Source: Eledone cirrhosa (lineage: Eukaryota). From it: a stretch of 64,000 bases of DNA. Shown here one piece after another: positions 30,971 to 64,000 of the stretch. Under the pieces are notes generated by a model. It did no database searches, was not told the DNA's origin, and saw only the letters and a program-made list of their open reading frames with translations. The stretch lies in assembly GCA_964016885.1 (NCBI GenBank), contig OZ024740.1:6324001-6388000 (forward strand). Reading direction: 5' to 3'. Both the position numbers and the translations under genes were made by a program. The first letter of the stretch is position 1; every line of letters starts with the position of its first letter.

Positions 30971-31176
30971 ACAAGTATCTTCTGTAAAATCTGTGATGTC
31001 CTGTGTAGTCCATGGTTTACACATCCGTCGAGAGAGTGCTACTTTGGTTCATGAACACTCCAGCCGATCACATTTGATTGTTACTCTGTTAATAACCACT
31101 AAGGACACCGTTACTTCACAGCACACAGACCCTGCTCCAGATACACTGTCTGATTGGTCAACTTCAGCATTCGGCA
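30971..31176 (+). CDS. KIF25: Internal exon of a kinesin motor domain (KIF25-like), switch I region
   Basis: Acceptor ttttactttcag| and donor |gtaagt. Translation QVSSVKSVMSCVVHGLHIRRESATLVHEHSSRSHLIVTLLITT...AFG. It contains the switch I SSRSH in a TLVHxxSSRSHLI context that I recall from KIF25 (H replaces the usual N). 206 nt, phase 2 in, phase 1 out. Confidence 0.88.
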
Positions 31177-31249
31177 GTAAGTACAAATTTATGCCAAGTT
31201 AAAATCAACAGTGACAAATGAGGTCTATCAAGAAAGGATCTGACCTTAA

Positions 31250-32620: not shown

Positions 32621-34148
32621 ACCTGCTGGGGTCAGACGTGTGTCTTTTTTTCTCTCGACCACACAGTCTTGAACTTAAGTTCTCTCATCGTGTGGTCTTG
32701 GATTTTCTTACCTAAGTTGCTCGCACATTGCTCGGTTTGTTGGGGTTTTTTTTCGCTTTTTTTCGCTGTTTTTTCACTGTTTTCTCTTTTCTTCCCTTTT
32801 GTTTTCCTTCCCTCCTCTTCCGTTTTCCCAATAACTTATCCAGTTATTGACGCTCTGGGCGGTAGATATATTGTCTTTAAAGCGTAGAAATATCTTTAAC
32901 GAGCATAAAAGTTCGTCGATTTTATTTAGTGTTTACGTTATTTGGTCATTAATTTAGGAATAAAGTAATTAAATGAAACATGCTGAAATATCTCACACAA
33001 GTGTCTATAATTGTCTCATCTTTATTGTTATAAGCGTGTGTTACAACTTGGAAATAAGACATACCTTTTTAAATAATATAATATGTATAATTGTTGGCAG
33101 TATCGGTAGAGGGTTGGACGCCATGCTTTCTAGCATAGTTACGTCCCTTTACAGTCTGAGTTCAAATCCCGCCGAGGTTAACTTTGCCTTTCATCCTTAC
33201 GGGGTCGATAAAATAAAGTACCAGTAATGTACTGGGTAATTGCTGGCTTGTGCCTAAAGTAGAAACAATTATTAGTTGTAGAATTGGCGACGAGGTGAGA
33301 GAAAAAGTTAGTCTCCATTTGGTGTTATTGGTTTTCTGTTCCGATGTTGAAGTCGCCTGAGAGAGAGTTGCTCTTAATATGTTCGCTCCATATGGTGTGG
33401 TAAAAATGAAAAGTGGGAGAAGGCAAAATTACATCTTAACTCCTGGACAGCTAGCTTTGTAAGAGAGCAGGTACTTTCAGTTTCTCAATTTATAGTCTCC
33501 ATGTGACGTAAGTTTCCTTAACTCTCCTTCTCGCCCCAAGGGATCACTACATATCCGAGACCCCCGGTAGACAACTGATGAAGAAAACTCCCCCCTGTTC
33601 TTGCTTTCTTCTTATACCCACTCCATTTTAAGTTACCTTAAATAGCAACTACACAGCCATTTCTATTCTCCATATATTTTACCATGTTTTCGCTGTGACC
33701 ATTCTTCTCTCCCTTTCTCCCTCTCACTTTCACTCCCTCGTCTGACCCTCTAGTAGTCCTATTCTCACTTACAACTGCTGGGGTTAGACGTGTGTCTTTT
33801 TCTCTCGACCACACAGTATTGAATTTAAGTTCTATCATCGTATGGTCTTGGATTTTCTTACCTAAGTTGCTCGCACATTGCTCGGTTTGTTGTTTTTTTA
33901 TCGCTTTTTTTCGCTGTTTTTTCAGTTTTCTCTTTTCTTCCCTATCCCCCCCCCCCTCTTCCGTTTTCCCAATAACTTATCCAGTTATTGACGATCTGGG
34001 CGGTAGATATATTGTCTTTAAAGCGTAGAAATATCCGAGACCCCTAATAGTCAACTGATGAGGACCCCCCCCCCGTTCTTGCTTCCTTCTTAATCACACT
34101 CCATTTTAAGCTACTTTAAATACCAACTACACAGCCATTTCTATTCTC
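32621..34148. repeat. Dispersed direct repeats A (32621-32894, 33774-34035) and B (33551-33670, 34031-34148); possible Penelope pseudo-LTR remnants
   Basis: ORF-track translations at 32669 and 33792 are near-identical. The B copies share atatccgagaccc..caactgatga..ccattttaag..caactacacagccatttctattctc. The partial-tandem layout is typical of PLEs, but the family assignment is inference. Confidence 0.6.
33095..33270 (+). mobile_element. tRNA-derived SINE, family A
   Basis: A-box-like tggcagtatcggtag, B-box gagttcaaatccc, then gccgaggttaactttgcctttcatccttacggggtcgataaaataaagtaccag. Further copies at 42020-42175, 42185-42410 and (minus) ~43860-43920. Confidence 0.8.
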
Positions 34149-35119: not shown

Positions 35120-36385
35120 GTTATGTATGTAAAGTGTTAAATTTTGATCTAATAATTTTGGTCTAATAATATTTTCTATAAAAAAACGTTTCTTTGCCAA
35201 TGTGTTTTTCTTCTGATGTTGACTAGCAAAATTAGTAGAATGAGAAGACATTGAAATTTGGTAAAGTTTTCCCTCCACATTCCCCTATATGAAAGACTAA
35301 GAGGGATCTTTCTCGGGTATGGATATCTGATTTGTTAGGAGTGAATTGTCAATCTTTGTCGGGGTGTAAGTCCTGTTTGGCCAATGTAGCATTCGTGGCA
35401 GCCTTTACATATTATAATATATATTAAATTCTCTGAGTTGTACAAGAAGTCATTTTTAATTTTGAAAATGTGACCTTCTTTGAAGTAATTCGTGGCCTTC
35501 TAATAGGTAGTTGTATATCCCGCAGTTGGGTCAGGTTCTTTAATTTCGGTTTACAGCTTTGCATTTGTTAGAATCTTTTTCAGTGACTTAGGTTGTCATC
35601 TACCTTTTATAATTGGGTATATATGGTGTTTTTTGTCCTTTAGTAAGATAGGTAGGTTTAGTTACATGTGTGTGTAGAATTCTGTGTTTTGGGTTACAAG
35701 TTGAAATGTATGGTATGGTCGTTGTTTTGGTTGTTGTTTCTCGGGGTATTTGGATATTGATTTGCCTTGCCTTTTGAATGCTATTATTAATTAAATTCTG
35801 TAGTGTGTAGTCTCTTGTTGTTAGGTTTAAAACTATTGTCCAGATTCGTTTAGCTAAGTTAAGTGGTATATTGTTACGGATGTGAATGAGAAGATGTAAT
35901 AAAGAGATATTTTCAGGAGTCGGTTGGTTTGAAATATATGTCAGTTTCTAGCTTTATGTTTCCTTATTAGTATGTCTAAGAAGGGAAGGTTTTCGTTGCT
36001 GAAATCCCCAGTGAATTGGATGTTAGGGTTCACTTTATTGATGAGAGTTGCAATTTCTTTAGTCCTCAAGATTTTCCCTCCACAGAATAAAAAAGTCACC
36101 CAGATACCTTTTCCAATTTTCTTTTATATAACAACTTAATTTGTCCCATAAATTTGTGAGGTTTGTTAGTAAACTTGTATACCATGGTATCCCATGACTA
36201 AGTTGGCATTTTTGGTGCAACATTTGTCCCTACGTCTGCTTCTGATTTTTGGCGGTAGGCTTTTTCGTTGAACATGAAGTAGTTGTTATTAAAAGTAAAT
36301 TGAAGACCGTCAATGGTGAAATGTTTGTCAATATATCAAATATTGGCATCAGTTAACGTGTTTTTCCATGCTGCTATGGATATAT
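35120..36385 (-). mobile_element. Decayed Penelope-like retroelement (RT plus GIY-YIG endonuclease)
   Basis: Minus-strand motifs: NNNYFMFNEKAYRQKSEADVGTNVAP..ANLVMGY, WKRYLGDFFILW (YxDD degraded), NPNIQFT..NLPFLDILI, TDIYFKPTDS, NNIPLNLAKRI, SENLIYIIICKGCHECYIGQTG (GIY-YIG) and FIENIIRPKL. Stops and frameshifts are present. Confidence 0.9.
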
Positions 36386-38454: not shown

Positions 38455-41409
38455 GTCGTCGTCCATCTTCCACGCTAGCATGGGTTAGACGGGAGTTGTC
38501 CCACTTGAGGCAAGGTCGGTCGGGTGACCGTGTCTCGCTCATATAGGACTATCTGGCAGGTTTTCTACGGCTGGATGCCCTTCCTAACACCAACCACATT
38601 TACAGTGTGGACTGGGAGGTTTTTACAGTGTTACCTACACGGCCACATTACAGCGTGGACTGTGTGTTTTTTTGACATGACACCTACACGATCTCGATCT
38701 CATTATCTCGTGGTGTTGGTGGGAGTGGGAGGATAGGGTAGGGGTAGTGGATCGGGGTGTATATTTGGTTAAGAGGCGCCTACTGACTGTAGGTTTCGCT
38801 TTGTACATAGGCAAGGCGGGTCTTCTGTATTACTGCGTAGCGCCAAAAACCTCGGTCCAGTGACATTGTCTTAGAGAGGTGCAAGTGTGTAAGGTCGGAA
38901 TTTATCAGATCGTCCCAGGTTTTTCTGGGTCTACCTACTCTGTAACTACCATCAATTTTGATCACCCTGCACTTTTTTATACAGCTGTCATCTTTCTTGC
39001 ACATCACATGACCATAGCAATGTTGTCTTCTCTCAAGGAAACAGCATCTGATCCCACTTATTCCTCATTTCTCACTTAGTTCATTTATGCTTTGCCGTTC
39101 ACGTATATTACTATTACACATCCAACGGAGCATGCAGGCTTCATTCCTTTCCAGTCTGCGCAGGTCCTCTGCACGTAATGCCCATGTCTCACTGCCATGT
39201 AGCATTGCTGTTCATATACAGGCATCATACAATCTGCCTTTCATTTTTAGAGAGAAACATTTTGTGGCCAACAGCGGTGTAAGCTCTCTGAACTTTTTCC
39301 ATCCCTTTCTGACTCTGGCTACTGTACTTTCAGAACACCCTCTACCACTGCTGATTTCGTCAGCCAGGTAACGGAAAGTGTCTACTATTTCTATAGAACC
39401 ATCTGGGCAATAGAAGGAGCTAGTATCCTGTGGGCACTTGCTACTTATTGCACCTGAGCATTGGCCACATATAAAGTTTACGTTCTTAGATAGTTTACCT
39501 GTGATCCCATTACATCTTTTATGTACCCATACTTTGCATTTGGGACATAAAATGGAATTTCTGCCTACTCCTTTCCTACACACTGAGCATAGCCATTTCC
39601 CTGAGGGTACCTGTGCCCTATTTTCCTTCTACAAACTAGAACTTTAGTCTTATACAAGTTAACCTTAAGGCCTTTTGATTCTAGGCCATGCTTCCATGTT
39701 TCAAATTTCATCTCTAGTTCAGTCATTGATTCAGCTATGAGCGTTACATCATCTGCGTATAGGAGTTCCCATGGGCAGCCGATCTTGAACTCCTCTGTTA
39801 TAGCCTGAAGGGCAATAATAAATAGGAGGGGGCTAAGGACAGAGCCTTGATGAACGCCAACTTTTACACTAAATTCTTCACAATATTCATTGTTAATTCT
39901 AACTTTACTGACTGTTTCATTATACATAGCTTGTGTCGCTCTCAGAAGCCATTCCTCTACACCTAGTTTTCTAAGAGCCCACCAGATAATAGAGCGGGGG
40001 ACTCTGTCAAAGGCTTTCTCCAGGTCTACAAAAGCTAAGTAGAGGGGTTTACTTTTAGCTAGGTACTTCTGTTGTTGTCGTACATGGAAAAGAGCGTCTG
40101 TGGTACTTTTACCTGACACAAACCCAAACTGCATTTCATCTAGATCAATTCGTTCTCTGATTAGTTGCGCTATAACTCTTTCTGTGACCTTCATGATCTG
40201 GTCAACTAACTTAATGCCTCTATAGTTTCCCCTATCTAGAGCATCCCCTTTACCCTTGTAGCAGTTAATGATGATGCTGCTATGCCAGCCTTTCGGTATG
40301 ACCCCATTCTGTATTACTTGGTTAACTATCCGGGTGACCATAGTATGTCCCACCATTCCAGATGCTTTCAACATTTCAGCAACTATCTCCGAAGTCCCAG
40401 CTGCCTTGCCTGTCTTCATATCTTTGATTGCCTTACTTATTATACTACTTTTAACTTGCACTGCTAGTCCTTCTATTGGATCGATTTGGGGCAGACTATC
40501 TTTTTCCCGTTTATTCTCCTCATTTAATAGTCTCTCGTAGTGACACTTCCAGGCTATCTTCTTATTAGTATAAGTGAGGGCAAGTACACCTTTATCATTA
40601 TCGACACACTTCTCCCCGACAATATCACGGTTTTCCTTGAGACATTGTCTAGCAATCCTGAACACCTCATGTTTTTGGTCCTCACGTTGTAGAACATGCT
40701 TGAACTTTCTATCCTCTGCTACCCTTTTTGCATGGTACACTTTCCTCCTAGCTTCTCTCCTGGTCACTTGATAGTGCTCTCTACTTCCCCCATCCTGCCA
40801 TACTTTCTAAGCCTGCTTTTTGGCCTTGATTGTCTCTTCCACCTCACTGTTCCACCACCAAGTTACTCTCCTCCTGCCAATAGGTCTGCTCCAGCCACAG
40901 ATTTTATCCGTTGCTTTCAGCAGGTTCACTTTCAAGGATTGCCACTGTTCCTCTCTATTGCACGTCTCTAATTGCTCTTCCTTATTGTGAAAGGCATCAA
41001 GTAATAAGCTTTTAAATTTGTCACTGGCTATGGGGTCCTTCAACTTCCATATTCTTCTCCTCAAGGTAGGCTCCTCTGTCGTCGAGTACGTCTATTCCTG
41101 ACTATGAGGTCACTAACTGCTAGGCTATGTCGGGAGGTGCATTCTTCACTGAGGAGGGATTTAGTGTTTACAACAGACACTTTTTCCCGTCTTCTAATAA
41201 GGATATAATCTATCTTCTAATAAGGATATAATCCCCTGATCTATAGGTGATCAACTGATTTTCACTTTTTTTGAAGTTTGTGTTATAGATAGTTAGGCTA
41301 TTTGCGTCACAGAATTCCAGGATTCTGAACCCTCCTCATTTCTATTTCCAACCCCATACCCTCCATGGATTCCATCATAGCCATCGCTATGTTGTCCAAC
41401 ATGACCGTT
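38452..41409 (-). mobile_element. 5'-truncated, frameshifted RTE-clade LINE (partial APE endonuclease, RT, Cys/His finger, 3'UTR, short-repeat tail)
   Basis: APE fragment NGHVGQHSDGYDGIHGGYG..RNEEG..ILEFCDANSLTIYNTNFKK (~41270-41409). ORF 39565-40767 has NYRGIKL, QFGF, YLAFVDLEKAFDRVP, GVHQGSVLSPLLF and LLYADD. ORF 39212-39583 has CRKGVGRNSILCPKCKVWVHKRC..CGQC. ORF 38780-39007 has GRPRKTW. The 3'UTR ends in (GAC)n against a (TA)n tract. Confidence 0.95.
39565..40767 (-). pseudogene. Reverse transcriptase segment of the RTE ORF, disrupted at both ends
   Basis: Canonical non-LTR RT motifs including YADD; the flanking coding segments lie in other frames. Confidence 0.9.
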
Positions 41410-41521
41410 TATATATCATTTCATTTCATTTCATTTTACGTCCACTTTTCCCTGCTTGCAAGGGTGGGACTCATATATATATATATAGTATCTTATTAAA
41501 AAAAAAATATATATATATATA

Positions 41522-41844: not shown

Positions 41845-41964
41845 CCAATTCTTCCGTTGGTAAAGAGAAAGGTAGAACAACGCCCCCCAATCTTGCTTCT
41901 CTACACCCCAGTTTTATTAAAACTAAACTACAGCTTGTAGACTTGGCTGGAAGTGAATGTGTTG
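41845..41964 (+). CDS. KIF25: Next internal exon of the KIF25-like kinesin, switch II region
   Basis: Acceptor ttttaatttgcag| and donor |gtaagt. 120 nt, phase 1 in and out, so it joins the previous exon in frame (A|CC = Thr). Translation NSSVGKEKGRTTPPNLASLHPSFIKTKLQLVDLAGSECV contains DLAGSE, with the KIF25-type continuation SECV. Not in the ORF track. Confidence 0.9.
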
Positions 41965-42019
41965 GTAAGTAGAGCAATATATTCTTGAAATTATTCTTGT
42001 TGTTATTGTTATATGTACC

Positions 42020-43105: not shown

Positions 43106-43199
43106 CAGTTCACACCTATGCAGGTTTAGCTGGTCTCCTCCAAGGTATATCTCGTTGGAGGTGTCTTGGGTGATTTAATGATAGGGACCCCAGTCCTAT

Positions 43200-43340
43200 C
43201 ATCTCATTTCTACAGCTGAGTAAACTGGAGCAATGTGAAATAAAGTGTCTTATTCAAGGAAACATCACATCACCCGGTCCGAGAATTGAACTCACAACCT
43301 TTTGATTGTAAGCCCAATGCTCTAACCACTAAGCCATGCT
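43200..43340 (-). mobile_element. tRNA-derived SINE, family B
   Basis: Reverse complement begins gcatggcttagtggttagagcattgggcttacaatc...gtgagttcaattctcgg (A and B boxes), followed by ccttgaataagacactttatttcacattgctccagtttactcagctg. Confidence 0.8.
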
Positions 43341-45555: not shown

Positions 45556-46350
45556 ATCATCATCATCATCATTACCGTTTAACATCCATTTTTCCATCCT
45601 AGTATGAGTTAGATGAGTTGTCCCATTGTCAGACAAATCATATCATTTGACCTTGTCTTGCTCTTACAAGAACAGTTTCTCACTTGGTTTCTACGACTAG
45701 ATGCTCGTCCTAATGCCAACCAAATTTACAGAGTGGACTGGGTGCTCTTTATCATGGCATCAAAACAAACATTTTACAGTGTGGACTGGGTGCTTTTTAT
45801 TATGACGCCAAAACGACCACTTTACAGTGGGGGCTGGGTGCTTTCCTTGATAAGTCACCAACAGTCCTATTTGCCAGCCTCTCTTATATCCCTCAGTCTC
45901 CCATTCACATTACCCTGTTAACTGTACAATGGAGAATGGTAGTTTATTGTTTGACACCAACATCACATATACCAAATCAACATTAAATCCAGACATCAGA
46001 CACCTGAAGTATTGATGTTATTTAAATGCTGCCAGAACTAATGACATCAGCAAAGTGTCCTCCTCATTGTCATCATCATCATTTTAATGTCTGCTTTCCC
46101 TGCAAGGGTTGGACAGGTCTACATAGATCAATTCAGTACTGAAGTGGAGGCACAGATCTTCTAGACAAGCCAGGGATCTGCATCTCACTTATATATGATC
46201 TCATATTCTACCAAGTACACAGGGACGGTAGTCATGTCTTTGACACAACTAAGGGTCCTCCCAACTCTTTATTTGACAAATTTTCTACAGCTGAATGCCC
46301 TTCCTATCACCAGCCACTTTACAGCATGTACTCGGTGCATTTATCGTGTA
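45556..46350 (-). mobile_element. Two RTE-type 3'-end fragments (45556-45850, 46070-46350) directly upstream of the 58-bp satellite
   Basis: Each starts with a (CAT)n tail plus tttaacatccatttttcc or tttaatgtctgctttccc and contains tttctac..ctRRatgc..tcctaWYRccaRcca..tttacag. Confidence 0.75.
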
Positions 46351-46420
46351 GATCATCAAACACTGTGGGATGAAATTTCTTGATGTGACTGAAGGGTCCT
46401 CCCAGGATTGGGTTGGCAAT

Positions 46421-49400
46421 CTTTATATGGCTGGATACCCTTCCTATTACCAACCACACTACAACATGTACTGGCTGTGTATCCATGGCTAGATACCCTT
46501 CCTATTACCAACCACACTACAACATGTACTGGATGTGTTTCTATGATAATAGGAATGGTATCTAGCAATATAAACATTGCCGGTACATGTTGTAGTGTGG
46601 TTGGTAATAGGAAGGGTATCTAGCCATAGAAACACAACCACTACATGTTGTGGTGTGGTTGGTAATAGGAAGGGTATCTAGCCATAGAAACACAACCACT
46701 ACATGTTGTAGTGTGGTTGGTAATAAGAAGGATATCTAGCCATAGAAACACAGCCACTACATGTTGTAGTGTGGTTGGTAATAGGAAGGGTATCTAGCCA
46801 TAGAAACACAACCACTACATGTTGTAGTGTGGTTGGTAATAAGAAGGGTATCTAGCCATAGAAACACAGCCACTACATGTTGTGGTGTGGTTGGTAATAG
46901 GAAGGGTATCTAGCCATAGAAACACAACCACTACATGTTGTAGTGTGGTTGGTAATAAGAAGGATATCTAGCCATAGAAACACAGCCACTACATGTTGTA
47001 GTGTGGTTGGTAATAGGAAGGGTATCTAGCCATAGAAACACAACCACTACATGTTGTAGTGTGGTTGGTAATAAGAAGGGTATCTAGCCATAGAAACACA
47101 GCCACTACATGTTGTGGTGTGGTTGGTAATAGGAAGGGTATCTAGCCATAGAAACGCAGCCACTACATGTTGTAGTGTGGTTGGTAATAGGAAGGGTATC
47201 TAGCCATTGAAACACAGCCAGTACATGTTGTAGTGTGGTTGGTAATAGGAAGGGTATCTAACCATAGAAACACTGCCAGTAGATGTTGTAGTGTGGTTGG
47301 TAATAGGAAGGGTATCTAGCCATAGAAACACAGCCATTACATGTTGTAGTGTGGTTGGTAATAGGAAGGGTATCTAGCCATAGAAACACAGCCACTACAT
47401 GTTGTATTGTGGTTGGTAATAGGAAGGGTATCTAGCAATAGAAACACAACCTGTAGATATTGTAGTGTTGTTGGTAATAGGAAGGATATTTAGCCATTGA
47501 AACACAGCCAGTACATTACAACATGTACTGGCTGTGTTTCTATGGCTAGACACCCTTCCCATTACCAACCACACTACAACATGTACTGGCTGTGTTTCTA
47601 TGGCTAGATACCCTTCCTATTACCAACCACACTACAACATGTACTCGCAGTGTTTCTATGGCTAGATACCCTTCCTATTACCAACCACACTACAACATGT
47701 ACTGGCTGTGTTTCTATGGCTAGATACCCTTCCTATTACCAACCACACTACAACATGTACTGGCTGTGTTTCTATGGCTAGATAACCTTCCTATTACCAA
47801 CCACACTACAACATGTACTGGATGTATTTCTAATGGCTAGATACCCTTCCTATTACCAACCACACTGGAACATGTACTGGCTGTGTTTCTATGGCTAGAT
47901 ATCCTTCCTATTACCAACCACACTGGAACATGTACTGGCTGTGTTTCAATGGCTACATACCCTTCCTATTACCAACCACACTACAACATGTAGTGGCTGT
48001 GTTTCTATGGCTAGATACCCTTCCTATTATCAACCACACTACAACATGTACTGGCTGTGTTTCTATTGCCAGATACCCTTCATATTACCAACCACACTAC
48101 AACATGTAGTGGCTGTGTTTCTATGGCTAGATACCCTTCCTATTACCAACCACACTACAACATGTACTCGCAGTGTTTCTATGGCTAGATACCCTTCCTA
48201 TTACCAACCACACTGGAACATGTACTGGCTGTGTTTCAATGGCTACATACCCTTCCTATTACCAACCACACTACAACATGTAGTGGCTGTGTTTCTATGG
48301 CTAGATATCCTTCCTATTACCAACCACACAGCAACATGTACTGGCTGTGTTTCTATGGCTAGATACCCTTCCTATTACCAACCACACTACAACATTTACT
48401 GGATGTGTTTCTATGGCTAGATACCCTTCCTATTACCAACCACACTACAACATGTACTGGATGTGTTTCTATGGCTAGATACCCTTCCTATTACCAACCA
48501 CACTACAACATGTACTGGATGTATTTCTAATGGCTAGATACCCTTCCTATTACCAACCACACTGGAACATGTACTGGCTGTGTTTCTATGGCTAGATATC
48601 CTTCCTATTACCAACCACACTGCAACATGTACTGGCTGTGTTTCTATGGCTAGATGCCCTTCCTATTACCAACCACACTACAACATGTACTGGATGTGTT
48701 TCTATGGCTAGATACCCTTCCTATTACCAACCACACTACAACATGTACTGGATGTGTTTCTATGGCTAGATACCCTTCCTGTTACCAACCACACTACAAC
48801 ATGTAGTGGCTGTGTTTCTATGGCTAAATATCCTTCCTATTACCAACCACACTACAACATGTACTGGCTGTGTTTCTATTGTAGATACCCTTCCTATTAC
48901 CAACCACACTACAACATGTACTGGCAAAATTTCTATGGCTGGATACCCTTCCTATTACCAACCACACTACAAAATGTACTGGCAGTGTTTCTATGGCTAG
49001 ATACCCATCCTATTACCAACCACACTACAACATGTACTCGATGTGTTTCTATGGCTAGATACCCTTCCTATTACCAACCACACTACAACATGTACTGGCT
49101 GTGTTTCTATGGCTAGATACCCTTCCTATTACCAACCACACTACAACATGTAGTGGCTGCGTTTCTATGGCTAGATACCCTTCCTATTACCAACAGCACT
49201 ACAACATGTACTGGTTGTGTATCTATAGCTAAATATCCTTCCTATTACCAACCACACTACAACATGTACTGGCTGTGTTTCTATGGCTAGATACCCATCC
49301 TATTACCAACCACACTACACCATGTAGTGGCTGTGTTTCTATGGCAAGATACCCTTCCTATTACCGACCACACTACAACATGTACTGGCTGTGTTTCTAT

Positions 49401-52400
49401 GATAATAGGAATGGTATCTTGCAATAGAAACATTGCCGGTACATGTTGTAGTGTGGTTGGTAATAGGAAAGGTATCTAGCCATAGAAACACAGCCAGTAC
49501 ATGTTGTAGTGTGGTTTGTAATAGGAAGGGTATCTAGCCCTAGAAATACAGCCACTACATGTTGTAGTGTGGTCGGTAATAGGAAGGGTATCTAGCCATA
49601 GAAACACAGCCAGTACATGTTCTAGTGTGGTTGGTATAAGGAAGGGTATCTAGCCATAGAAACACTGCCAGTACATGTTCCAGTGTGGTTGGTAATAGGA
49701 AGGGTATCTAGCCATAGAAACACAGCCAGTACATGTTGTAGTGTGGTTGGTAATAGGAAGGGTATCTAGCAATAGAAACACAACCAGTAGATATTGTAGT
49801 GTTGTTGGTAATAGGAAGGATATTTAGCCATTGAAACACAGCCAGTACACTACAACATGTACTGGCTGTGTTTCTATGGCTAAATACCCTTCCTATTACA
49901 AACCACACTACAACATGTACGGGCTGTGTTTCTATGGCTAGATACCCTTCCTATTACCAACCACACTACAACATGTACTGGCAGTGTTTCTATGGCTAGA
50001 TACCCTTCCTATTACCAACCACCCTACAGCATGTAGTGGCTGTGTTTCTATGGCTAGATACCCTTCCTATTACCAACCACACTACAACATCTACTGGCTT
50101 TTTTTCTATGGCAACATACCCTTCCTATTACCAACAACACTACAACATGTACTGGCTGTGTTTCTATGGCTAGATACCCTTCCTATAACCAACCACACTA
50201 CAATATGTACTGGCTGTGTTTCTATGGCTAGATACCCTTCCTATTACCAACCACACTACACCATGTAGTGGCTGTGTTTCTATGGCATGATACCCTTCCT
50301 ATTACCGACCACACTACAAGATGTACTGGCACTGTTTCTATGGCAACATACCCTTCGTATTACCAACCACACTACAACATGTACTGGCAGTGTTTCCATG
50401 GCTAGATAGCTTTCCTATTACCAACAACACTACACCATGTACCGGCAATGTTTCTATGGCTAGATACCCTTCCTACTACCAACCACACTACAGCATGTAC
50501 TCGCAGTGTTTCAATGGCTAGATACCCTTCCTATTACCAACCACACTACAACATGTAGTGGCTGTGTTTATATGGCTAGATACCCTTCCTATTACCAACA
50601 ACACTACACCATGTACCGGCAATGTTTCTATGGCTAGATACCCTTCCTATTACCAACCACACTACAACATGTACTGGCAGTGTTTCTATGTCTAGATACC
50701 CTTCTTATTACCAAGCACACTACAACATGTACTGGCAGTGTTTCTATGGCTAGATACCCATCCTATTAGCAACTACACTACAACATGTACTGGCAAACTT
50801 TCTATGGCTGGATACCCTTCCTATTACCAACCATACTACAATATGTACTCGCTGTGTTTCTATGGTTAGATACCCTTCCTATTACCAACCACACTACAAC
50901 ATGTAGTGGCTGTGTATCTATGGCTAGATACCCTTCCTATTACCAACCACACTACAACATGTACGGGTTGTGTTTATATGGCTAGATACCCTTCCTATTA
51001 CCAACCACACTACAACATGTACTGGTTGTGTTTCTATGGCCACTACATGTTGTAGTGTGGTTGGTAATAGGAAGGGTATCTAGCCATTGAAACACAGCCA
51101 CTACATGTTGTAGTGTGGTTGGTAATAGGAAGGGTATCTAGCCATTGAAACACAGCCACTACATGTTGTAGTGTGGTTGGTAATTGGAAGCGTATCTAGC
51201 CATTGAAACACAGCCACTATATGTTGTAGTGAGGTTGGTAATAGGAAGGGCATCTAGCCATAGAAACACAGCCACTACCTGTTGTAGTGTGGTTGGTAAT
51301 AGGAAGGGTATCTAGCCATTGAAACACAGCCACTACATGTTGTAGTGTGGTTGGTAATAGGAAGGGTATCTAGCCATTGGAACACAGCCACTACATGTAG
51401 TGTGGTTGGTAATAGGAAGGGTATCTAGCCATAGAAACACAGCCACTACATGTTGTAGTGTGGTTGGTAATAGGAAGGGTATCTAGCCATAGTAATACAG
51501 CCAGTACATGTTGTAGTGTGGTTGGTAATAGGAAGGGTATCTAGCCATAGAAACACAGCCACTACATGTTGTAGTGTGGTTGGTAATAGGAAGGGTATCT
51601 AGCCATAGAAACACAGCCACTACATGTTGTAGTGTGGTTGGTAATAGGAAGTGTATCTAGCCATAGAAGCACAGCCACTACATGTTGTAGTGTGGTTGGT
51701 AATAGGAAGGGTATCTAGCCATAGAAACACAGCCAGTACATGTTGTAATGTGGTTGGTAATAGGAAGGGTATCTAGCCATAGAAACACAGCCACTACATG
51801 TTGTAGTGTGGCTGGTAATAGGAAGGGTATCTAGCCATAGAAACACAGCCACTACATGTTGTAGTGTGGTTGGTAATAGGAAGGGCATCTAGCCATAGAA
51901 ACACAGCCACTACATGTTGTAGTGTGGTTGGTAATAGGAAGGGTATCTAGCCATAGAAAAACAGCCACTACATGTTGTAGTGTCGTTGGTAATAGGAAGG
52001 GTATCTAGCCATAGAAACACAGCCACTACATGTTGTAGTGTGGTTGGTAATAGGAAGGGTATCTAGCCATTGAAACACAGCCATTACATGTTGTAGTGTG
52101 GTTGATAATAGGAAGGGTATCTAGCCATAGAAACACAGCTAGTACATGTTGTAGTGTGGTTGGTAATAGGAAGGGTATCTAGCCATAGAAACACAGCCAC
52201 TACATGTTGTAGTGTGGTTGATAATAGGAAGGGTATCTAGCCATAGTAATACAGCCACTACATGTTGTAGTGTGGTTGGTAATAGGAAAGGTATCTAGCC
52301 ATAGAAACACAGCCACTAAATGTTGTAGTGTGGTTGGTAATAGGAAGGGTATCTAGCCATTGGAACACAGCCACTACATGTAGTGTGGTTGGTAATAGGA

Positions 52401-55400
52401 AGGGTATCTAGCCATAGAAACACAGCCACTACATGTTGTAGTGTGGTTGGTAATAGGAAGGGTATCTAGCCATAGTAATACAGCCAGTACATGTTGTAGT
52501 GTGGTTGGTAATAGGAAGGGTATCTAGCCATTGAAACACAGCCACTACATGTTGTAGTGTGGTTGGTAATTGGAAGCGTATCTAGCCATTGAAACACAGC
52601 CACTACATGTTGTAGTGTGGTTGGTAATAGGAAGTGTATCTAGCCATAGAAGCACAGCCACTACATGTTGTAGTGTGGTTGGTAATAGGAAGGGTATCTA
52701 GCCATAGAAACACAGCCACTACATGTTGTAGTGTGGTTGGTAATAGGAAGGGTATCTAGCCATAGAAACACAGCCACTACATGTTGTAGTGTGGTTGGTA
52801 ATAGGAAGGGTATCTAGCCATAGAAGCACAGCCACTACATGTTGTAGTGTGGCTGGTAATAGAAAGGGTATCTAGCCATAGAAACACAGCCACTACATGT
52901 TGTAGTGTGGCTGGTAATAGGAAGGGTATCTAGCCTTGGAAACACAGCCACTACATGTTGTATTGTTGTTGGTAATAGGAAGGGTATCTAGCCATAGAAA
53001 CACAGCCACTACATGTTGTAGTGTCGTTGGTAAGAGGAAGGGTATCTAGCCATAGAAACACAGCCATTACATGTTGTAGTGTGGTTGGTAATAGGAAGGG
53101 TATCTAGCCATTGAAACACAGCCATTACATGTTGTAGTGTGGTTGATAATAGGAAGGGTATCTAGCCATAGAAACACAGCTAGTACATGTTGTAGTGTGG
53201 TTGGTAATAGGAAGGGTATCTAGCCATAGAAACACAGCCACTACATGTTGTAGTGTGGTTGATAATAGGAAGGGTATCTAGCCATAGTAATACAGCCACT
53301 ACATGTTGTAGTGTGGTTGGTAATAGGAAGGGTATCTAGCCATAGTAATACAGCCACTACATGTTGTAGTGTGGTTGGTAATAGGAAGGGTATCTAGCCA
53401 TAGAAACACAGCCACTACATGTTGTAGTGTGGTTGATAATAGGAAGGGTATCTAGCCATAGTAATACAGCCACTACATGTTGTAGTGTGGTTGGTAATAG
53501 GAAGGGTATCTAGCCATAGAAACACAGCTAGTACATCTTGTAGTGTGGTTGGTAATAGGAAGGGTATCTAGCAATAGAAACACTGCCAGTACATGTTGTA
53601 GTGTGGTTGGTAATAGGAAGGGTAACTAGCAATAGAAACACTGCCGGTACATGTTGTAGTGTGGTTGGTAATAGAAAGGGTATCTAGCCATTGAAACACT
53701 GCCAGTACATGTTGTAGTGTGGTTGGTAATATGAAGGGTATCTAGTCATAGAAACACATCCAGTACATGTTGTAGTGTGGTTGGTAATAGGAAGGGTATC
53801 TAGCCATTGAAACACAGCCACTACCTGTTGTAGTGTGGTTGGTAATAGGAAGGTTATCTATGGCTAGATACCCTTCCTATTACCAACCACACTACAACAT
53901 GTACTGGATGTGTTTCTATGACTAGATACCCTTCCTATTACCAACCGCACAACAACATGTAGTGGCTGTGTTTCTATGGCTAGATACCCTTCCTATTACC
54001 AACAACACTACACTATGTACCGGCAGTGTTTCTATGGCTAGATACCCTTCCTTCTACCAACCACACTACAGCATGTACTGGCAGTGTTTCTATGGCTAGA
54101 TACCCTTCCTATAACCAACCACACTACAACATGTACTGGCTGTGTTTCTATGGCTAGATACCCTTCCTATAACCAACCACACTACAACATGTACTGGCTG
54201 TGTTTCTATGGCTAGATACCCTTCCTATAACCAACCACACTACAACATGTACTGGCTGTGTTTCTATGGCTAGATACCCTTCCTATTACCAACCACACTA
54301 CAATATGTACTGGATGTGTTTCTATGGCTAGATACCCTTCCTATTACCAACCACACTACAACATGTACTGGCAAACTTTCTATGGCTGGATACCCTTCCT
54401 ATTACCAACCACACAACAACATGTACGGGTTGTGTTTCTATGGCTAGATACCCTTCCTATTACCAACTGCACTACAACATGTACTGGCTTTGTTTCTATG
54501 GCAACATACCCTTCGTATTAACAACCACACTTCAACATGTACTGGCAGTGTTTCTATGGCTAGATACCCTTCCTATTACCAACTGCACTACAACATGTAC
54601 TGGCTGTGTTTCTATGGCAACATACCCTTCCTATTACCAACCACACTCCAACATGTACTGGCTGTGTTTCTATGGCAACATACCCTTCGTATTAACAACC
54701 ACACTTCAACATGTACTGGCAGTGTTTCTATGGCTAGATACCCTTCCTATTACCAACTGCACTACAACATGTAGTGGCTGTGTTTCTATGATAATAGGAA
54801 TGGTATCTAGCAATAGAAACATTGCCGGTACATGTTGTAGTGTGGTTGGTAATAGGAAGGGTATCTAGCCTTGGAAACACAGCCACTACATGTTGTATTG
54901 TTGTTGGTAATAGGAAGGGTATCTAGCCTTGGAAACACAGCCACTACATGTTGTATTGTTGTTGGTAATAGGAAGGGTATCTAGCCATAGAAACACAACC
55001 ACTACATGTATTTGTGTGGTTGGTAATAGGAAGGGTATCTAGCCATAGAAACACAGCCACTACATGTTGTAGTGTGGCTGGTAATAGGAAGGGTATCTAG
55101 CCTTGGAAACACAGCCACTACATGTTGTATTGTTGTTGGTAATAGGAAGGTTATCTAGCCATAGAAACACAACCACTACATGTTGTAGTGTGGTTGGTAA
55201 TAGGAAGGGTATCTAGCCATAGAAACACAGCCACTACATGTTGTAGTGTGGTTGATAAAAGGAATGGCATCTAGCGATAGAAACACAGCCACTACATGTT
55301 GTGTGGTTGGTAATAGGAAGGGCATCTAGCCATAGAAACACAGCCACTACATGTTGTAGTGTGGTTGGTAATAGGAAGGGCATCTAGCCATAGAAACACA

Positions 55401-58400
55401 GCCACTACATGTTGTAGTGTGGTTGGTAATAGGAAGGGTATCTAGCCATAGAAACACAGCCACTACATGTTGTAGTGTGGTTGGCAATAGGAAGAGTATC
55501 TAGCCATAGAAACACAGCCACTACATGTTGTAGTGTGGTTGGTAATAGGAAGGGTATCTAGCCATAGAAACACAGCCACTACATGTTGTAGTGTGGTTGG
55601 TAATAGGAAGGGTATCTAGCCATAGAAACACAGCCACTACATGTTGTAGTGTGGCTGGTAATAGGAAGGGTATCTAGCCATTGAAACACAGCCACTACAT
55701 GTTGTAGTGTGGTTGGTAATAGGAAGGATATCTAGCCATAGAAACACAGCCACTACATGTTGTAGTGTGGTTGGTAATAGAAAGGGTATCTAGCCATTGG
55801 AACACAGCCACTACATCTTGTAGTGTGGTTGGTAATAGGAAGGGTATCTAGCTATAGAAACACAGCCACTACATGTTGTAGTGTGGTTGGTAATAGGAAG
55901 GGTATCTAGCCATAGAAACACAGCCACTACATGTTGTAGTGTGGCTGGTAATAGGAAGGGTATCTAACCATAGAAACACAGCCACTACATGTTGTAGTGT
56001 GGTTGGTAATAGGAAGGGTATCTAGCCATAGGAACACAGCCACTACATGTTGTAGTGTGGTTTGTAATAGGAAGGGTATCTAACCATGGTAATACAGCCA
56101 CTACTTGTTGTAGTGTGGTTGGTAATAGGAAGGGTATCTAGCAATAGAAACACTGCCAGTACATGTTGTAGTGTGGTTGGTAATAGGAAGGGTATCTAGC
56201 CATTGGAACACAGCCACTACATGTTGTAGTGTGGTTGGTAATAGGAAGGGTATCTAGCCATAGAAACACAGCCACTACATGTTGTAGTGTGGTTGGTAAT
56301 AGGAAGGGTATCTAGCCATAGTAATACAGCCACTACATGTTGTAGTGTGGTTGGTAATAGGAAGGGTATCTAGCAATAGAAACACTGCCAGTACATGTTG
56401 TAGTGTCGTTGGTAATAGGATGGGTATCTAGCAATAGAAACACTGCCAGTACATGTTGTAGTGTGGTTGGTAATAGGAAGGGTAACTAGCAATAGAAACA
56501 CTGCCAGTACATGTTGTAGTGTGGTTGGTAATAGGAAGGGTATCTAGCAATAGAAACACTGCCAGTACATGTTGTAGTGTGGTTGGTAATAGGAAGGGTA
56601 TCTAGCCATAGAAACACAGCCACTACATGTTGTAGTGTGGTTGGTAATAGGAAGGGTATCTAACCATAGAAACACTGCCAGTACATGTTGTAGTGTGGTT
56701 GGTAATAGGAAGGGTATCTAACCATAGAAACACTGCCAGTACATGTTGTAGTGTGGTTGGTAATAGGAAGGGTATCTAGCCTTGGAAACACAGCCACTAC
56801 ATGTTGTATTGTTGTTGGTAATAGGAAGGGTATCTAGCCATAGAAACACAACCACTACATGTATTAGTGTGGTTGGTAATAGGAAGGGTATCTAGCCATA
56901 GAAACACAGCCACTACATGTTGTAGTGTGGTTGGTAATAGGAAGGGCATCTAGCGATAGAAACACAGCCACTACATGTTGTAGTGTGGTTGGTAATAGGA
57001 AGGGCATCTAGCCATAGAAACACAGCCACTACATGTTGTAGTGTGGGTGGTAATAGGAAGGGTATCTAGCCATTGAAACACAGCCACTACATGTTGTAGT
57101 GTGGCTGGTAATAGGAAGGGTATCTAACCATTGAAACACTGCCAGTAGATGTTGTAGTGTGGTTGGTAATAGGAAGGGTATCTAACCATTGAAACACTGC
57201 CAGTAGATGTTGTAGTGTGGTTGGTAATAGGAAGGGTATCTAGCCATAGAAACACAGCCACTACATGTTGTAGACTGGTTGGTAATAGGAAGGGTATCTA
57301 GCCATAGAAACACAGCCACTACATGTTGTAGTCTGGTTTGTAATAGGAAGGGTATCTAGCCATAGAAACACAGCCACTACATGTTGTAGTGTGGCTGGTA
57401 ATAGGAAGGGTATCTAGCCATAGAAACACAGCCACTACCTGTTGTAGTGTGGTTGGTAATAGGAAGGGTATCTAGCCATAGAAACACAGCCACTACATGT
57501 TGTAGTGTGGTTGGTAATTGTAGGAGTATCTAGCCATTGAAACACAGCCACTACATGTTGTAGTGTGGTTGGTAATAGGAAGGGTATCTAGCCATAGAAA
57601 CACAGCCACTACATGTTGTAGTGTGGTTGGTAATAAGAAGGGTATCTAGCCATTGAAACACAGCCACTACATGTTGTAGTGTGGCTGGTAATAGGAAGGG
57701 TATCTAACCATAGAAACACAGCCACTACATGTTGTATTGTTGTTGGTAATAGGAAGGGTATCTAGCCATAGAAACACAGCCACTACATGTTGTAGTGTGG
57801 CTGGTAATAGGAAGGGTATCTAGCCTTGGAAACACAGCCACTACATGTTGTATTGTTGTTGGTAATAGGAAGGTTATCTAGCCATAGAAACACAACCACT
57901 ACATGTTGTAGTGTGGTTGGTAATAGGAAGGGTATCTAGCCATAGAAACACAGCCACTACATGTTGTAGTGTGGTTGATAAAAGGAATGGCATCTAGCGA
58001 TAGAAACACAGCCACTACATGTTGTGTGGTTGGTAATAGGAAGGGCATCTAGCCATAGAAACACAGCCACTACATGTTGTAGTGTGGTTGGTAATAGGAA
58101 GGGCATCGAGCCATAGAAACACAGCCACTACATGTTGTAGTGTGGTTGGTAATAGGAAGGGTATCTAGCCATAGAAACACAGCCACTACATGTTGTAGTG
58201 CGGTTGGTAATAGGAAGGGTATCTAGCCATTGAAACACAGCCACTACATGTTGTAGTGTGGCTGGTAATAGGAAGGGTATCTAACCATAGAAACACTGCC
58301 AGTAGATGTTGTAGTGTGGTTGGCAATAGGAAGGGTATCTAGCCATAGAAAGACAGCCACTACATGTTGTAGTGTGGTTGGTAATAGGAAGGGTATCTAG

Positions 58401-61400
58401 CCATAGAAACACAGCCACTACATGTTGTAGTGTGGTTGGTAATAGGAAGGGTATCTAGCCATAGAAACACAGCCACTACATGTTGTAGAGTGGCTGGTAA
58501 TAGGAAGGGTATCTAGCCATTGAAACACAGCCACTACATGTTGTAGTGTGGTTGGTAATAGGAAGGATATCTAGCCATAGAAACACAGCCACTACATGTT
58601 GTAGTGTGGTTGGTAATAGGAAGGGTATCTAGCCATTGGAACACAGCCACTACATGTTGTAGTGTGGTTGGTAATAGGAAGGGTATCTAGCCATAGAAAC
58701 ACAGCCACTACATGTTGTAGTGTGGTTGGTAATAGGAAGGGTATCTAGCCATAGAAACACAGCCACTACATGTTGTAGTGTGGCTGGTAATAGGAAGGGT
58801 ATCTAACCATAGAAACACAGCCACTACATGTTGTAGTGTGGTTTGTAATAGGAAGGGTATCTAGCCATTGGAACACAGCCACTACATGTTGTAGTGTGGT
58901 TTGTAATAGGAAGGGTATCTAGCCATAGAAACACAGCCATTACATGTTGTAGTGTGGTTGGTAATATGAAGGTTATCTATGGCTAGATACCCTTCCTATT
59001 ACCAACCACACTACAACATGTAGTGGCTGTGTTTCTTTGGCTAGATACCCTTCCTATTACCAACCACACTACAGCATGTAGTGGCTGTTTATCTATGGCT
59101 AGATACCCTTCCTATTACCAACCACACTACAACATGTACTGGATGTGTTTCTATGGCTAGATACCCTTCCTATTACCAACCACACTACAACATGTACTGG
59201 CAGTGTTTCTATGGCTAGATACCCTTCCTATTACCAACCACACTACAACATGTACTGGCTGTGTTTCTATGGCTAGATACCCTTCCTATTATCAACACAC
59301 TACAACATGTACTGGCTGTGTTTCTATGGCAACATACCCTTTGTATTAACAACCACACTTCAACATGTACTGGCAGTGTTTTTATGGCTAGATACCCTTC
59401 CTATTACCAACCACACTCCAACATGTACTGGCTGTGTTTCTATGATAATAGGAATGGTATCTAGCAATAGAAACATTGCCGGTACATGTTGTAGTGTGGT
59501 TGGTAATAGGAAGGGTATCTAGCCATAGAAACACAGCCACTACATGTTGTAGTGTGGTTGGTAATAGGAAGGGTATCTAGCCTTGGAAACACAGCCACTA
59601 CATGTTGTATTGTTGTTGGTAATAGGAAGGGCATCTAGCGATAGAAACACAACCACTACATGTATTAGTGTGGTTGGTAATAGGAAGGGTATCTAGCCAT
59701 AGAAACACAGCCACTACATGTTGTAGTGTGGTTGGTAATAGGAAGGGTATCTAGCCATAGAAACACAGCCACTACATGTTGTAGTGTGGTTGGTAATAGG
59801 AAGGGTATCTAGCCATAGAAACACAGCCACTACATGTTGTAGTGTGGTTGGTAATAGGAAGGGTATCTAGCCATAGAAACACAGCCACTACATGTTGTAA
59901 TCTGGTTGGTAATAGGAAGGGTATCTAGCCATAGAAACACAGCCACTACATGTTGTAGTGTGGCTGGTAATAGGAAGGGTATCTAGCCATAGAAACACAG
60001 CCACTACCTGATGTAGTGTGGTTGGTAATAGGAAGGGTATCTAGCCATTGAAACACAGCCACTACATGTTGTAGTGTGGTTGGTAATAGGAAGGATATCT
60101 AGCCATAGAAACACAGCCACTACATGTTGTAGTGTGGTTGGTAATAGGAAGGGTATCTAGCCATTGGAACACAGCCACTACATGTTGTAGTGTGGTTGGT
60201 AATAGGAAGGGTATCTAGCCATAGAAACACAGCCACTACATGTTGTAGTGTGGTTGGTAATAGGAAGGGTATCTAGCCATAGAAACACAGCCACTACATG
60301 TTGTAGTGTGGCTGGTAATAGGAAGGGTATCTAACCATAGAAACACAGCCACTACATGTTGTAGTGTGGTTTGTAATAGGAAGGGTATCTAGCCATTGGA
60401 ACACAGCCACTACATGTTGTAGTGTGGTTTGTAATAGGAAGGGTATCTAGCCATAGAAACACAGCCATTACATGTTGTAGTGTGGTTGGTAATATGAAGG
60501 TTATCTATGGCTAGATACCCTTCCTATTACCAACCACACTACAACATGTAGTGGCTGTGTTTCTTTGGCTAGATACCCTTCCTATTACCAACCACACTAC
60601 AGCATGTAGTGGCTGTTTATCTATGGCTAGATACCCTTCCTATTACCAACCACACTACAACATGTACTGGATGTGTTTCTATGGCTAGATACCCTTCCTA
60701 TTACCAACCACACTACAACATGTACTGGCAGTGTTTCTATGGCTAGATACCCTTCCTATTACCAACCACACTACAACATGTACTGGCTGTGTTTCTATGG
60801 CTAGATACCCTTCCTATTATCAACACACTACAACATGTACTGGCTGTGTTTCTATGGCAACATACCCTTTGTATTAACAACCACACTTCAACATGTACTG
60901 GCAGTGTTTTTATGGCTAGATACCCTTCCTATTACCAACCACACTCCAACATGTACTGGCTGTGTTTCTATGATAATAGGAATGGTATCTAGCAATAGAA
61001 ACATTGCCGGTACATGTTGTAGTGTGGTTGGTAATAGGAAGGGTATCTAGCCATAGAAACACAGCCACTACATGTTGTAGTGTGGTTGGTAATAGGAAGG
61101 GTATCTAGCCTTGGAAACACAGCCACTACATGTTGTATTGTTGTTGGTAATAGGAAGGGCATCTAGCGATAGAAACACAACCACTACATGTATTAGTGTG
61201 GTTGGTAATAGGAAGGGTATCTAGCCATAGAAACACAGCCACTACATGTTGTAGTGTGGTTGGTAATAGGAAGGGTATCTAGCCATAGAAACACAGCCAC
61301 TACATGTTGTAGTGTGGTTGGTAATAGGAGGGTATCTAGCCATAGAAACACAGCCACTACATGTTGTAGTGTGGTTGGTAATAGGAAGGGTATCTAGCCA

Positions 61401-63800
61401 TAGAAACACAGCCACTACATGTTGTAATCTGGTTGGTAATAGGAAGGGTATCTAGCCATAGAAACACAGCCACTACATGTTGTAGTGTGGCTGGTAATAG
61501 GAAGGGTATCTAGCCATAGAAACACAGCCACTACCTGATGTAGTGTGGTTGGTAATAGGAAGGGTATCTAGCCATAGAAACACAGCCACTACATGTTGTA
61601 GTGTGGTTGGTAATAGGAAGGATATCTAGCCATAGAAACACAGCCACTACAGTGGCTGTGTTTCTTTGGCTAGATACCCTTCCTATTACCAACCACACTA
61701 CAGCATGTAGTGGCTGTTTATCTATGGCTAGATACCCTTCCTATTACCAACCACATTACAACATGTACTGGATGTGTTTCTATGACTAGATACCCTTCCT
61801 ATTACCAACCACACTACAACATGTACTGGCAGTGTTTCTATGGCTAGATACCCTTCCTATTACCAACCACACTACAACATGTACTGGCTGTGTTTCTATG
61901 GCTAGATACCCTTCCTATTACCAACCACACTACAACATGTACTGGCTGTGTTTCTATGGCTAGATATCCTTCTTATTACCAACCACACTACAACATGTAC
62001 TGGCTGTGTTTCTATGGCTAGATACCCTTCCTATTACCAACCACACTACAACATGTACTGGCTGTGTTTCTATGGCTAGATACCCTTCCTATTACCAACC
62101 ACACTACAACATGTACTGGCTGTGTTTCTATGGCTAGATACCCTTCCTATTACCAACCACACTACAACATCAACTGGCTGTGTTTCTATGGATAGATATC
62201 CTTCTTATTACCAACCACACTACAACATGTACTGGCTGTGTTTCTATGGCTAGATACCCTTCCTATTACCAACCACACTACAACATGTACTGGCTGTGTT
62301 TCTATGGCTAGATACCCTTCCTATTACCAACCACACTACAACATGTACTGGCTTTGTTTCTATGGCTAGATACCCTTCCTATTACCAAGCACACTACAAC
62401 ATGTACTCGCTGTGTTTCTATAGCTAGATACCCTTCCTATTACCAACCACACTACAACATGTACTGGATGTGTTTCTATGGCTAGATACCCTTCCTATTA
62501 CCAACCACACTACAACATGTAGTGGCTGTGTTTCTTTGGCTAGATACCCTTCCTATTACCAACCACACTACAGCATGTAGTGGCTGTTTATCTATGGCTA
62601 GATACCCTTCCTATTACCAACCACACTACAACATGTACTGGCTTTGTTTCTATGGCTAGATACCCTTCCTATTACCAACCACACTACAGCATATAGTGGC
62701 TGTTTATCTATGGCTAGATACCCTTCCTATTACCAACCACACTACAACATGTACTGGATGTGTTTCTATGGCTAGATACCCTTCCTATTACCAACCACAC
62801 TACAACATGTAGTGGCTGTGTTTCTTTGGCTTGATACCCTTCCTATTACCAACCACACTACAGCATGTAGAGGCTGTTTATCTATGGCAAAATACCCTTC
62901 CTATTACCAACCACACTACAACATGTACTGGCTGTGTTTCTATGGCTAGATGCCCTTCCTATTACCAACCACACTACAACATGTACTGGCTGTGTTTCTA
63001 TGGCTAGATACCCTTCCTATTACCAACCACACTACAACATGTACTGGCTTTGTTTCTATGGCTAGATACCCTTCCTATTACCAACCACACTACAACATGT
63101 ACTTGCTGTGTTTCTATAGCTACATACCCTTCCTATTACCAACCACACTACAACATGTATTGGCTGTGTTTCTATGCCGAGATACCCTTCCTATTACCAA
63201 CCACACTACAACATGTAGTGGCTGTGTTTCTATGGCTAGATATCCTTCTTATTACCAACCACAACAACATGTACTGGCTGTGTTTCTATGGCTAGATATC
63301 CTTCTTATTACCAACCACACTACAACATGTAGTGGCTGTGTTTCTATGGCTAGATATCCTTCTTATTACCAACCACACTACAACATGTACTGGCTGTGTT
63401 TCTATGGCTAGATATCCTTCTTATTACCAACCACACTACAACATGTAGTGGCTGTGTTTCTATGGCTAGATATCCTTCTTATTACCAACCACACTACAAC
63501 ATGTAGTGGCTGTGTTTCTATGGCTAGATATTCTTCCTATTACCAACCACACTACAACATGTAGTGGCTGTGTTTCTATGGCTAGATATCCTTCTTATTA
63601 CCAACCACACTACAACATGTACTGGCTGTGTTTCTATGGCTAGATATCCTTCCTATTACCAACCACACTACAACATGTAGTGGCTGTGTTTCTATGGCTA
63701 GATACCCTTCCTATTACCAACCACACTACAACATGTACTGGCAGTGTTTCTATGGCTAGATACCCTTCCTATTACCAACCACTCTACAACATGTACTCGC
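46421..63800. repeat. 58-bp tandem satellite (TTTCTATGGCTAGATACCCTTCCTATTACCAACCACACTACAACATGTA(CT/GT)GGCTGTG), ~300 monomers in 13 alternating-orientation blocks
   Basis: 58-bp period read directly. Strand switches at ~46545, 47515, 49401, 49849, 51040, 53859, 54790, 58979, 59444, 60507, 60972 and 61649. Confidence 0.99.
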
Positions 63801-64000
63801 TCTGTTTCCTTTGTAGATCTCCAACATATACATATTTGTTGTTACTGAAATGCTCATTAAATTCAATTAGTGTCTCTGACTCCTTAACATCAACACGTGA
63901 TCCAGATAAACTATTAGGGACTAATATGCCCCTAAATTATATTCTCTATCTTGTTTTCTCCCAGGCATCTGAACGAGGAGGACAGTTTTATCTCTGCGAA

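Follow-up and report, generated by a model that had tools for sequence, protein, structure and literature searches.

The Drosophila hairpin-RNA loci hp-CG4068, hp-CG18854 and Nmy/Tmy are long imperfect hairpins built from repeats, with dedicated transcripts that are diced by Dcr-2, products loaded on AGO2 and well-paired targets, and Alu-like pairs provide an example of intronic inverted repeats that serve as ADAR substrates. Here we analyse a locus in the cephalopod Eledone cirrhosa that resembles such systems in part: a 58-bp satellite within a 64,000-nucleotide stretch of contig OZ024740.1 (assembly GCA_964016885.1, positions 6,324,001 to 6,388,000 of the forward strand; hereafter the window), in what appears to be an intron of a KIF25-like gene. 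Two further systems come close in layout or in origin. Macro-dyads of the satellites TmSat1 and TmSat2 in Tribolium madens consist, like our array, of kilobase-scale opposed subarrays with few conserved types of inversion site (PMC13081366), and the satellites derived from short interspersed elements (SINEs) in squamates (sSat) are, like our array, tandem arrays of partial retroposons grown in place (PMC10702118). We found no paper on an inverted RTE-derived satellite in cephalopods or on the present locus, in a search made mostly without subscription literature. Our analysis leads us to regard the array as probably a locus-specific satellite derived from an RTE-like long interspersed element (LINE), whose inversions were copied after they arose and whose double-stranded RNA (dsRNA) would be a by-product without a dedicated role against RTE. 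This departs from an earlier reading of the same DNA (the original prediction), which had proposed a built-in source of dsRNA or small RNA directed at the RTE family, an ADAR sink or a decoy for RTE protein.

The array is made of blocks that flip orientation in turn, each 126-4,139 bp long, with 7,245 bp on the + strand and 9,954 bp on the - strand. The kilobase-scale inverted blocks of one 58-mer that had been noticed earlier can be mapped over 46421-63801. Read along the host transcript, units in the + orientation are antisense to RTE mRNA, and 160 units are RTE-sense.

46421..63801, no strand assigned, 58-bp satellite of about 300 units in 13 alternating blocks, period 58
46421..46546, + strand, block 1, antisense to RTE mRNA on the host transcript
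46547..47516, - strand, block 2, opens with junction A (2-nt microhomology), first unit diverged
47513..49402, + strand, block 3, opens with junction B (3-nt microhomology)
49403..49849, - strand, block 4, second copy of junction A
49847..51040, + strand, block 5, second copy of junction B
51039..53853, - strand, block 6, junction D, a single copy with 2-nt microhomology
53854..54791, + strand, block 7, junction C (4-nt microhomology)
54792..58972, - strand, block 8, the longest, third copy of junction A
58973..59445, + strand, block 9, second copy of junction C
59446..60500, - strand, block 10, fourth copy of junction A
60501..60973, + strand, block 11, third copy of junction C
60974..61651, - strand, block 12, fifth copy of junction A
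61651..63801, + strand, block 13, junction E, a single copy and a blunt fold-back

Spacing is exactly 58 bp in 268/279 anchor-to-anchor units. Among units of the + blocks identity is 91.9%, among those of the - blocks 93.7%, and across the two orientations 92.0%; one diagnostic column splits the orientations, with C in 80/108 + units and G in 128/160 - units. No Rfam family was found inside the array at the gathering score.

The 12 switches of orientation fall into five spacerless junction types (five copies of A, two of B, three of C and one each of D and E), for which alignments give microhomologies of 2, 3, 4, 2 and 0 nt from A to E. The five copies of junction A are 97-100% alike over 60 nt, and their common first unit deviates from the commonest unit at 6/58 letters; a 36-37-bp 'spacer' at this junction, considered as foreign DNA, proved to be this diverged unit. 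Two junctions are carried by a longer repeat within the array.

58481..61334, + strand, higher-order duplication, 58481-59806 again at 60009-61334, with junctions C and A

The duplicated segment measures 1,326 bp, is offset by 1,528 bp and is 99.55% identical between its copies. From the five junction types and a duplication that carries two junctions we infer about five switch events, which were copied later along with neighbouring units. A strong dyad in the unit as the cause of inversion is unsupported, as the longest internal exact dyad is 6 nt and does not exceed those of eight sister units. The Tribolium macro-dyads share with our array the presence of one diverged unit at the turn (PMC13081366). 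They are, however, multi-megabase, putatively (peri)centromeric and present on all chromosomes, with mostly two subarrays per array (PMC13081366), whereas ours is one 17-kb intronic locus of 13 blocks with a retrotransposon-derived unit; a 34-mer of this unit has 115 exact genomic matches, of which 115/115 lie in the array. The main text of PMC13081366 treats DNA hairpins, and the string 'transcri' is absent from it.

Reversals of this kind could wholly or partly be artefacts of assembly or reads, such as fold-back reads or false duplication. Six sequencing runs were listed for 46421-56420, with no RNA run among them. We examined the layout in three runs from one sample (X1-X3), which behave as whole-genome DNA with flat depth through exon and intron. 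In their contigs the monomers are deeply covered, and over 46552-46578, a stretch private to the first junction (type A), depth is zero in 3/3 runs, as would fit an artefact. This hole proves nothing alone, and the first junction is thus unconfirmed from reads; palindrome centres are depleted by snap-back in short-read libraries, which would yield the same hole. Two runs of restriction-site-associated DNA sequencing (X4 and X5) gave no cover over unique parts of the array, and the 99.55% duplication could itself be a mis-joined haplotype. Other properties speak for real reversals. The junction arms are not mirrors of each other (best identity 0.86-0.94 at 10/12 junctions and 0.58 at 2/12), which mostly rejects fold-back reads. 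The + and - units are distinct at the diagnostic column, the copies of junction A bear private and copy-specific changes, and foreign sequence is absent from all junctions. We therefore consider an artefactual origin quite unlikely.

Judged from sequence, the unit is a decayed piece of the 3' untranslated region (UTR) of a young, abundant RTE-like LINE. The family is represented in the window by a decayed copy, whose reverse transcriptase (RT) region served as the query in a genome search.

38460..41411, - strand, decayed RTE-like LINE with a truncated 5' end, in the intron before that of the array, with 84% identity to a young copy

This search yielded 120,043 candidates, with 148 scored matches; frames longer than 1,000 aa were frequent. 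Among the fetched copies, 18/20 have frames of 1,056-1,190 aa that reach the usual C-terminus, and these 18 young copies have nearly identical 3' UTRs with (TGA)n tails; the other two (L059 and L060), whose longest frame falls short of the normal end, were dropped from the word-match and guide-pairing tests described below. Pfam APE, RT and PHD domains were found on the one young copy scanned. The parent element thus combines a single open reading frame with APE and RT and a short tandem 3' tail, a feature of the RTE clade, and we take it to be RTE-like on the label given in the original prediction and on these traits. Aligned with the young LINE 3' UTR, the commonest unit agrees at 44/58 letters with a module from the middle of that UTR, and its mismatch spectrum is far better than that of the reversed control. 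The unit does not include the end of the UTR or its (TGA)n tail. A decayed 3' end of RTE type adjoins the array.

46070..46420, - strand, decayed RTE-type 3' end abutting the array, with a second module copy and a (TGA)n-type tail

The second module copy (46281-46324) is 89% identical to the young element over 45 bp, and the RTE-sense 3' side of the array runs into this module and the tail; no recognisable parent remnant was found on the other side of the array. The original prediction had the hairpin consist of the segment shared by RTE LINEs. Its RTE 3'-UTR ancestry holds, but the unit is a decayed relative of that segment and not the segment itself.

With a unit homologous to part of a dispersed retroelement and an array that passes directly into a relic of its parent, the locus has the properties of a satellite born from a retrotransposon. 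It shares with sSat a longer terminal unit that runs into the parent and many independent origins (PMC10702118). It differs in being built from a LINE-type 3' UTR module, and the words 'inverted' and 'orientation' are absent from the main text of PMC10702118. Sister arrays with 55-61-bp units from the same module were present at 14 other fetched loci and reach up to 42 kb, each with its own unit and several with remnant tails. An orientation switch inside an array was seen at 0/14 sister loci and in 0/6 neighbouring satellites; one of the sister loci consists of two separate opposite arrays 2.5 kb apart, and one was seen over 10 kb only. Seeding of arrays from the UTR module is common in this genome, and the reversals are particular to the KIF25-intron locus. 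One sister array, a one-way array of 60-bp units, extends over 42.6 kb (L065:4348-L069:6930; G000:C9 10784348-10826930). In one LINE subfamily the 3' UTR contains a tandem duplication of 112 bp, spanning the 58-mer module, in up to 6.6 copies (at L056, L062, L064:7676-7904 and L079:1-742), and the UTR itself is prone to tandem growth.

With Octopus KIF25 as query, tblastn over 263 kb in and around the window returned KIF25-like exons at 30972-31178, 41846-41964, 98568-98725 and 120993-121196, the last two in window-equivalent coordinates past the window end. The two exons in the window encode part of the kinesin motor.

30972..31178, + strand, KIF25-like exon, its aligned part 83% identical to Octopus KIF25
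41846..41964, + strand, KIF25-like exon upstream of the array, ending in LQLVDLAGSECV-G, with a GT donor at 41965

Homology and splice signals together place the array in a putative 56.6-kb + strand intron of this gene. The intron would extend over 41965-98567 (window-equivalent end), a length of 56,603 bp, with GT..AG borders in phase 1 and a Gly codon joined across the splice. The intronic position that had been assumed for the array agrees with these exons, which flank it at 41964 and window-equivalent 98568. An AG at 63965 was considered as the start of the next KIF25 exon and rejected, since it leads to a stop in phase 1; the real exon lies 35 kb beyond.

If transcribed, the unspliced RNA is predicted to form long, regularly interrupted imperfect duplexes. 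In folding predictions, 7/7 junction-centred windows of 800 nt reached -555 to -700 kcal/mol with 86-94% of positions paired, each with 3-8 helices of at least 21 bp and a longest helix of 40-89 bp. In contrast, five within-block and three flank windows, used as controls, gave -152 to -275 kcal/mol and helices of at most 12 bp. An exact inverted partner exists for 4,473/7,105 21-mers of the + blocks, for 1,053/6,853 57-mers and for 0/6,440 116-mers. The long hairpins anticipated from a host transcript are thus predicted at 7/7 junctions and 0/8 controls, as imperfect duplexes, with + and - monomers 92% identical. A long imperfect hairpin, here a predicted one, is also the property that the array has in common with the Drosophila hairpin-RNA loci; it differs from them in its intronic position, in the lack of Dcr-2 and siAGO among the loci found and in poor pairing to its targets, as detailed below.

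The array likewise recalls the intronic inverted-repeat ADAR substrates of a survey of 22 metazoan species, including Octopus bimaculoides, in that nearby inverted repeats are predicted to pair; in this survey repeats hold on average 83% of A-to-I sites (PMC9989829). It differs from such substrates in its tandem units, the absence of a spacer and many alternative registers. By analogy, the array duplex would likely be edited by ADAR, if transcribed. Outside the array the intron contains 33 inverted pairs, which occupy 11,313 of its other 39,221 bp; the largest measures 3,388 bp, with 94.6% identity. This 3.4-kb pair (window-equivalent 78384-81758 and 92825-96149; L003-L005) belongs to another APE-bearing LINE family and is a better conventional dsRNA candidate than the array.

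A function of the duplex in cis, on KIF25 splicing, elongation or nuclear retention, or as a sink for ADAR or dsRNA-binding protein or a decoy for RTE protein, would be in keeping with up to 7.2 kb that can pair without a spacer, with local folding at each switch and with the 160 RTE-sense units. The array is nevertheless a single locus, and inverted repeats abound throughout the 3-Gb genome, which would make it an ADAR substrate rather than the sink that had been suggested. As for the proposed decoy, neither the end of the UTR nor the tail is present in the unit, and the genome-wide 34-mer search found no dispersed or retro-copied unit, as productive RTE binding might leave. We hold this group of functions to be unlikely.

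We then turned to the targets, using young elements of one RTE-like family, with RTE subfamilies surveyed in part. The longest exact word shared with the array is 13 nt in 18/18 young elements and has 12 occurrences in the array. The 21-mers seen at least twice in the array (1,786/4,072 distinct, covering 87% of positions) were compared with two young elements: 0 lie within 1 mismatch, 1.4% match at 2 mismatches and 8.1% at 3, and 30-mers carry at least 4 mismatches. Among the antisense registers of the two commonest units, a full seed match occurs in 4/58 and pairing through guide positions 2-12 in 0/58, with G-U allowed. Even the best guides carry mismatches at positions 10-12; three of the four seed-matching registers fall within the conserved core and pair well on the 3' side. 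Of 191 exact genomic sites for the best array 21-mer, 166 are in the array and 25 outside, whereas the core in its RTE version occurs exactly 43,146 times (20,277 on one strand and 22,869 on the other). A degenerate 24-mer that comes closer to the unit was counted at 2,282 sites, a figure that takes in the array and its sister arrays. RTE-related dsRNA can be accounted for without the array, which would be a poorer source of it than ordinary inverted copies.

The small-RNA machinery of the host points in the same direction. Pfam Piwi matches were found at four loci and RNase III matches at two, in a genome search that was exon-wise and therefore gives lower bounds. Classified by one exon per locus, two Piwi-domain loci are closest to human AGO2 and two to PIWI; one of the two RNase III loci was classified and is Dicer-1-like, with 124.5 bits to fly Dcr-1 vs 57.6 to Dcr-2. 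Neither the Dicer (DICER2) nor the siAGO of the small interfering RNA (siRNA) pathway was found in this lower-bound search. Published surveys report that siAGO and DICER2 were not found in Mollusca (PMC11114477) and that molluscs including O. bimaculoides have no dedicated siRNA pathway, with rare settings allowed, and abundant somatic and gonadal PIWI-interacting RNAs (piRNAs) (PMC12479628). The host appears to be without the siRNA Dicer/AGO pair.

These data bear on two forms of a small-RNA source. In the first, the hairpin is diced to 21-22-nt endo-siRNAs that silence RTE. The predicted long duplex, with its many 21-mers that have an exact inverted partner, would suit such processing, the target family is young and numerous, with 120,043 candidates at first look, and the seed-matching registers, three of them in the conserved core, would offer guides. 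No tested 21-mer comes within 1 mismatch of the two young elements, though, and the best guides are unpaired at positions 10-12; a t10-t11 double mismatch is reported to abolish AGO2 cleavage (PMC10338343). Together with the single Dicer-1-like locus and two AGO2-like loci found, and with the endo-siRNA pathway absent from molluscs in both surveys, this makes dicing against RTE extremely improbable.

In the second form, the intron is a single-stranded piRNA precursor, the + blocks yield antisense piRNAs that weakly slice RTE 3' UTRs, and the inversions supply both strands from one transcript. Two PIWI loci are present, mollusc piRNAs are abundant in soma and gonad (PMC12479628), about 300 units could give a high dose of guides, and PIWI cleavage remains detectable, if about 60-fold slower, with t10 and t11 unpaired (PMC10338343). 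The same source has PIWI slicing require at least 15 contiguous pairs, as against the longest match of 13 nt; the 30-mers have 4 or more mismatches, the duplex would hide a single-stranded precursor, and the exact RTE-core copies already lie on both strands genome-wide. We consider a piRNA role highly unlikely. The complementarity of array-derived guides to active RTE, which had been put forward as a check, is thus poor when computed in silico. With poor pairing to young RTE, the apparent lack of the siRNA Dicer and AGO, and abundant better sources of RTE dsRNA, a small-RNA source directed at RTE finds no support.

We consider it probable that a decayed RTE 3'-end fragment in the KIF25 intron grew in place into the 58-bp array, that rare template switches created the five junction types, and that ordinary unequal exchange then multiplied these to 12 reversals. 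The pre-mRNA would fold into long imperfect duplexes, which would likely be edited by ADAR and discarded with the intron. Several points weigh against this explanation. First, the first junction is not seen in the short-read contigs. Second, the monomer variants show no A>G excess, as distinct A>G and T>C variants on the transcript strand number 7 v 6 in both + and - blocks, without trace of fossil RNA editing. Third, the inverted layout is unusual locally, being absent from the sister loci and neighbouring satellites. Lastly, the repeated amplification of junction-bearing units would also fit selection for the duplex, and neutrality is argued from the lack of targets. It is conceivable, if very unlikely in our estimation, that the junction units were kept and multiplied as a self-assembled source of dsRNA or piRNA that damps the most active LINE in a host without canonical siRNA; if so, one transcript would give both strands of the conserved UTR core at a 300-fold dose.

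The array lies in a region with many other long satellites, with 32-, 77-, 48-, 47-, 42- and 23-mer units. A search of the 100 kb upstream for earlier exons of KIF25 found none, and the upstream intron is thus longer than 130 kb and mostly satellite. Within it, a 32-bp satellite with all units in one direction spans about 79 kb (G000:C1 about 6273900-6352800, which takes in window 1-28839), and a 77-bp satellite of no less than 43 kb lies before it. Two 47-bp arrays lie in KIF25 introns (L002:6986-8336 and L006:5053-5753), with a unit that by eye looks like a piece of a LINE coding region. A 48-bp satellite of 20.7 kb is located downstream of KIF25 (L008:7749-L010:8469; G000:C1 about 6454750-6475470), and its unit resembles the short tandem units of an RTE-type 3' UTR. 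Decayed RT and GIY-YIG-like fragments, Penelope-like by eye, occupy 35240-36380 on the - strand of the window; beside them an element of about 450 bp with CTGATGA motifs is repeated twice at 32610-34110, in which Rfam detected no hammerhead at the gathering score. A very high-copy, transfer RNA (tRNA)-related SINE-like element at 43177-43338, with a weak tRNA match at 43279-43336, has the highest read depth.

The array provides a clean example of a retroelement-derived satellite that has gained inversions and multiplied them. Were its small RNAs to act on RTE, they would reveal an unrecognised route from dsRNA to silencing in molluscs, which the sequence evidence makes unlikely. With its unique k-mers and both strands in one intron, the locus may instead serve as a locus-specific reporter of how cephalopods handle kilobase-scale dsRNA without an siRNA pathway.

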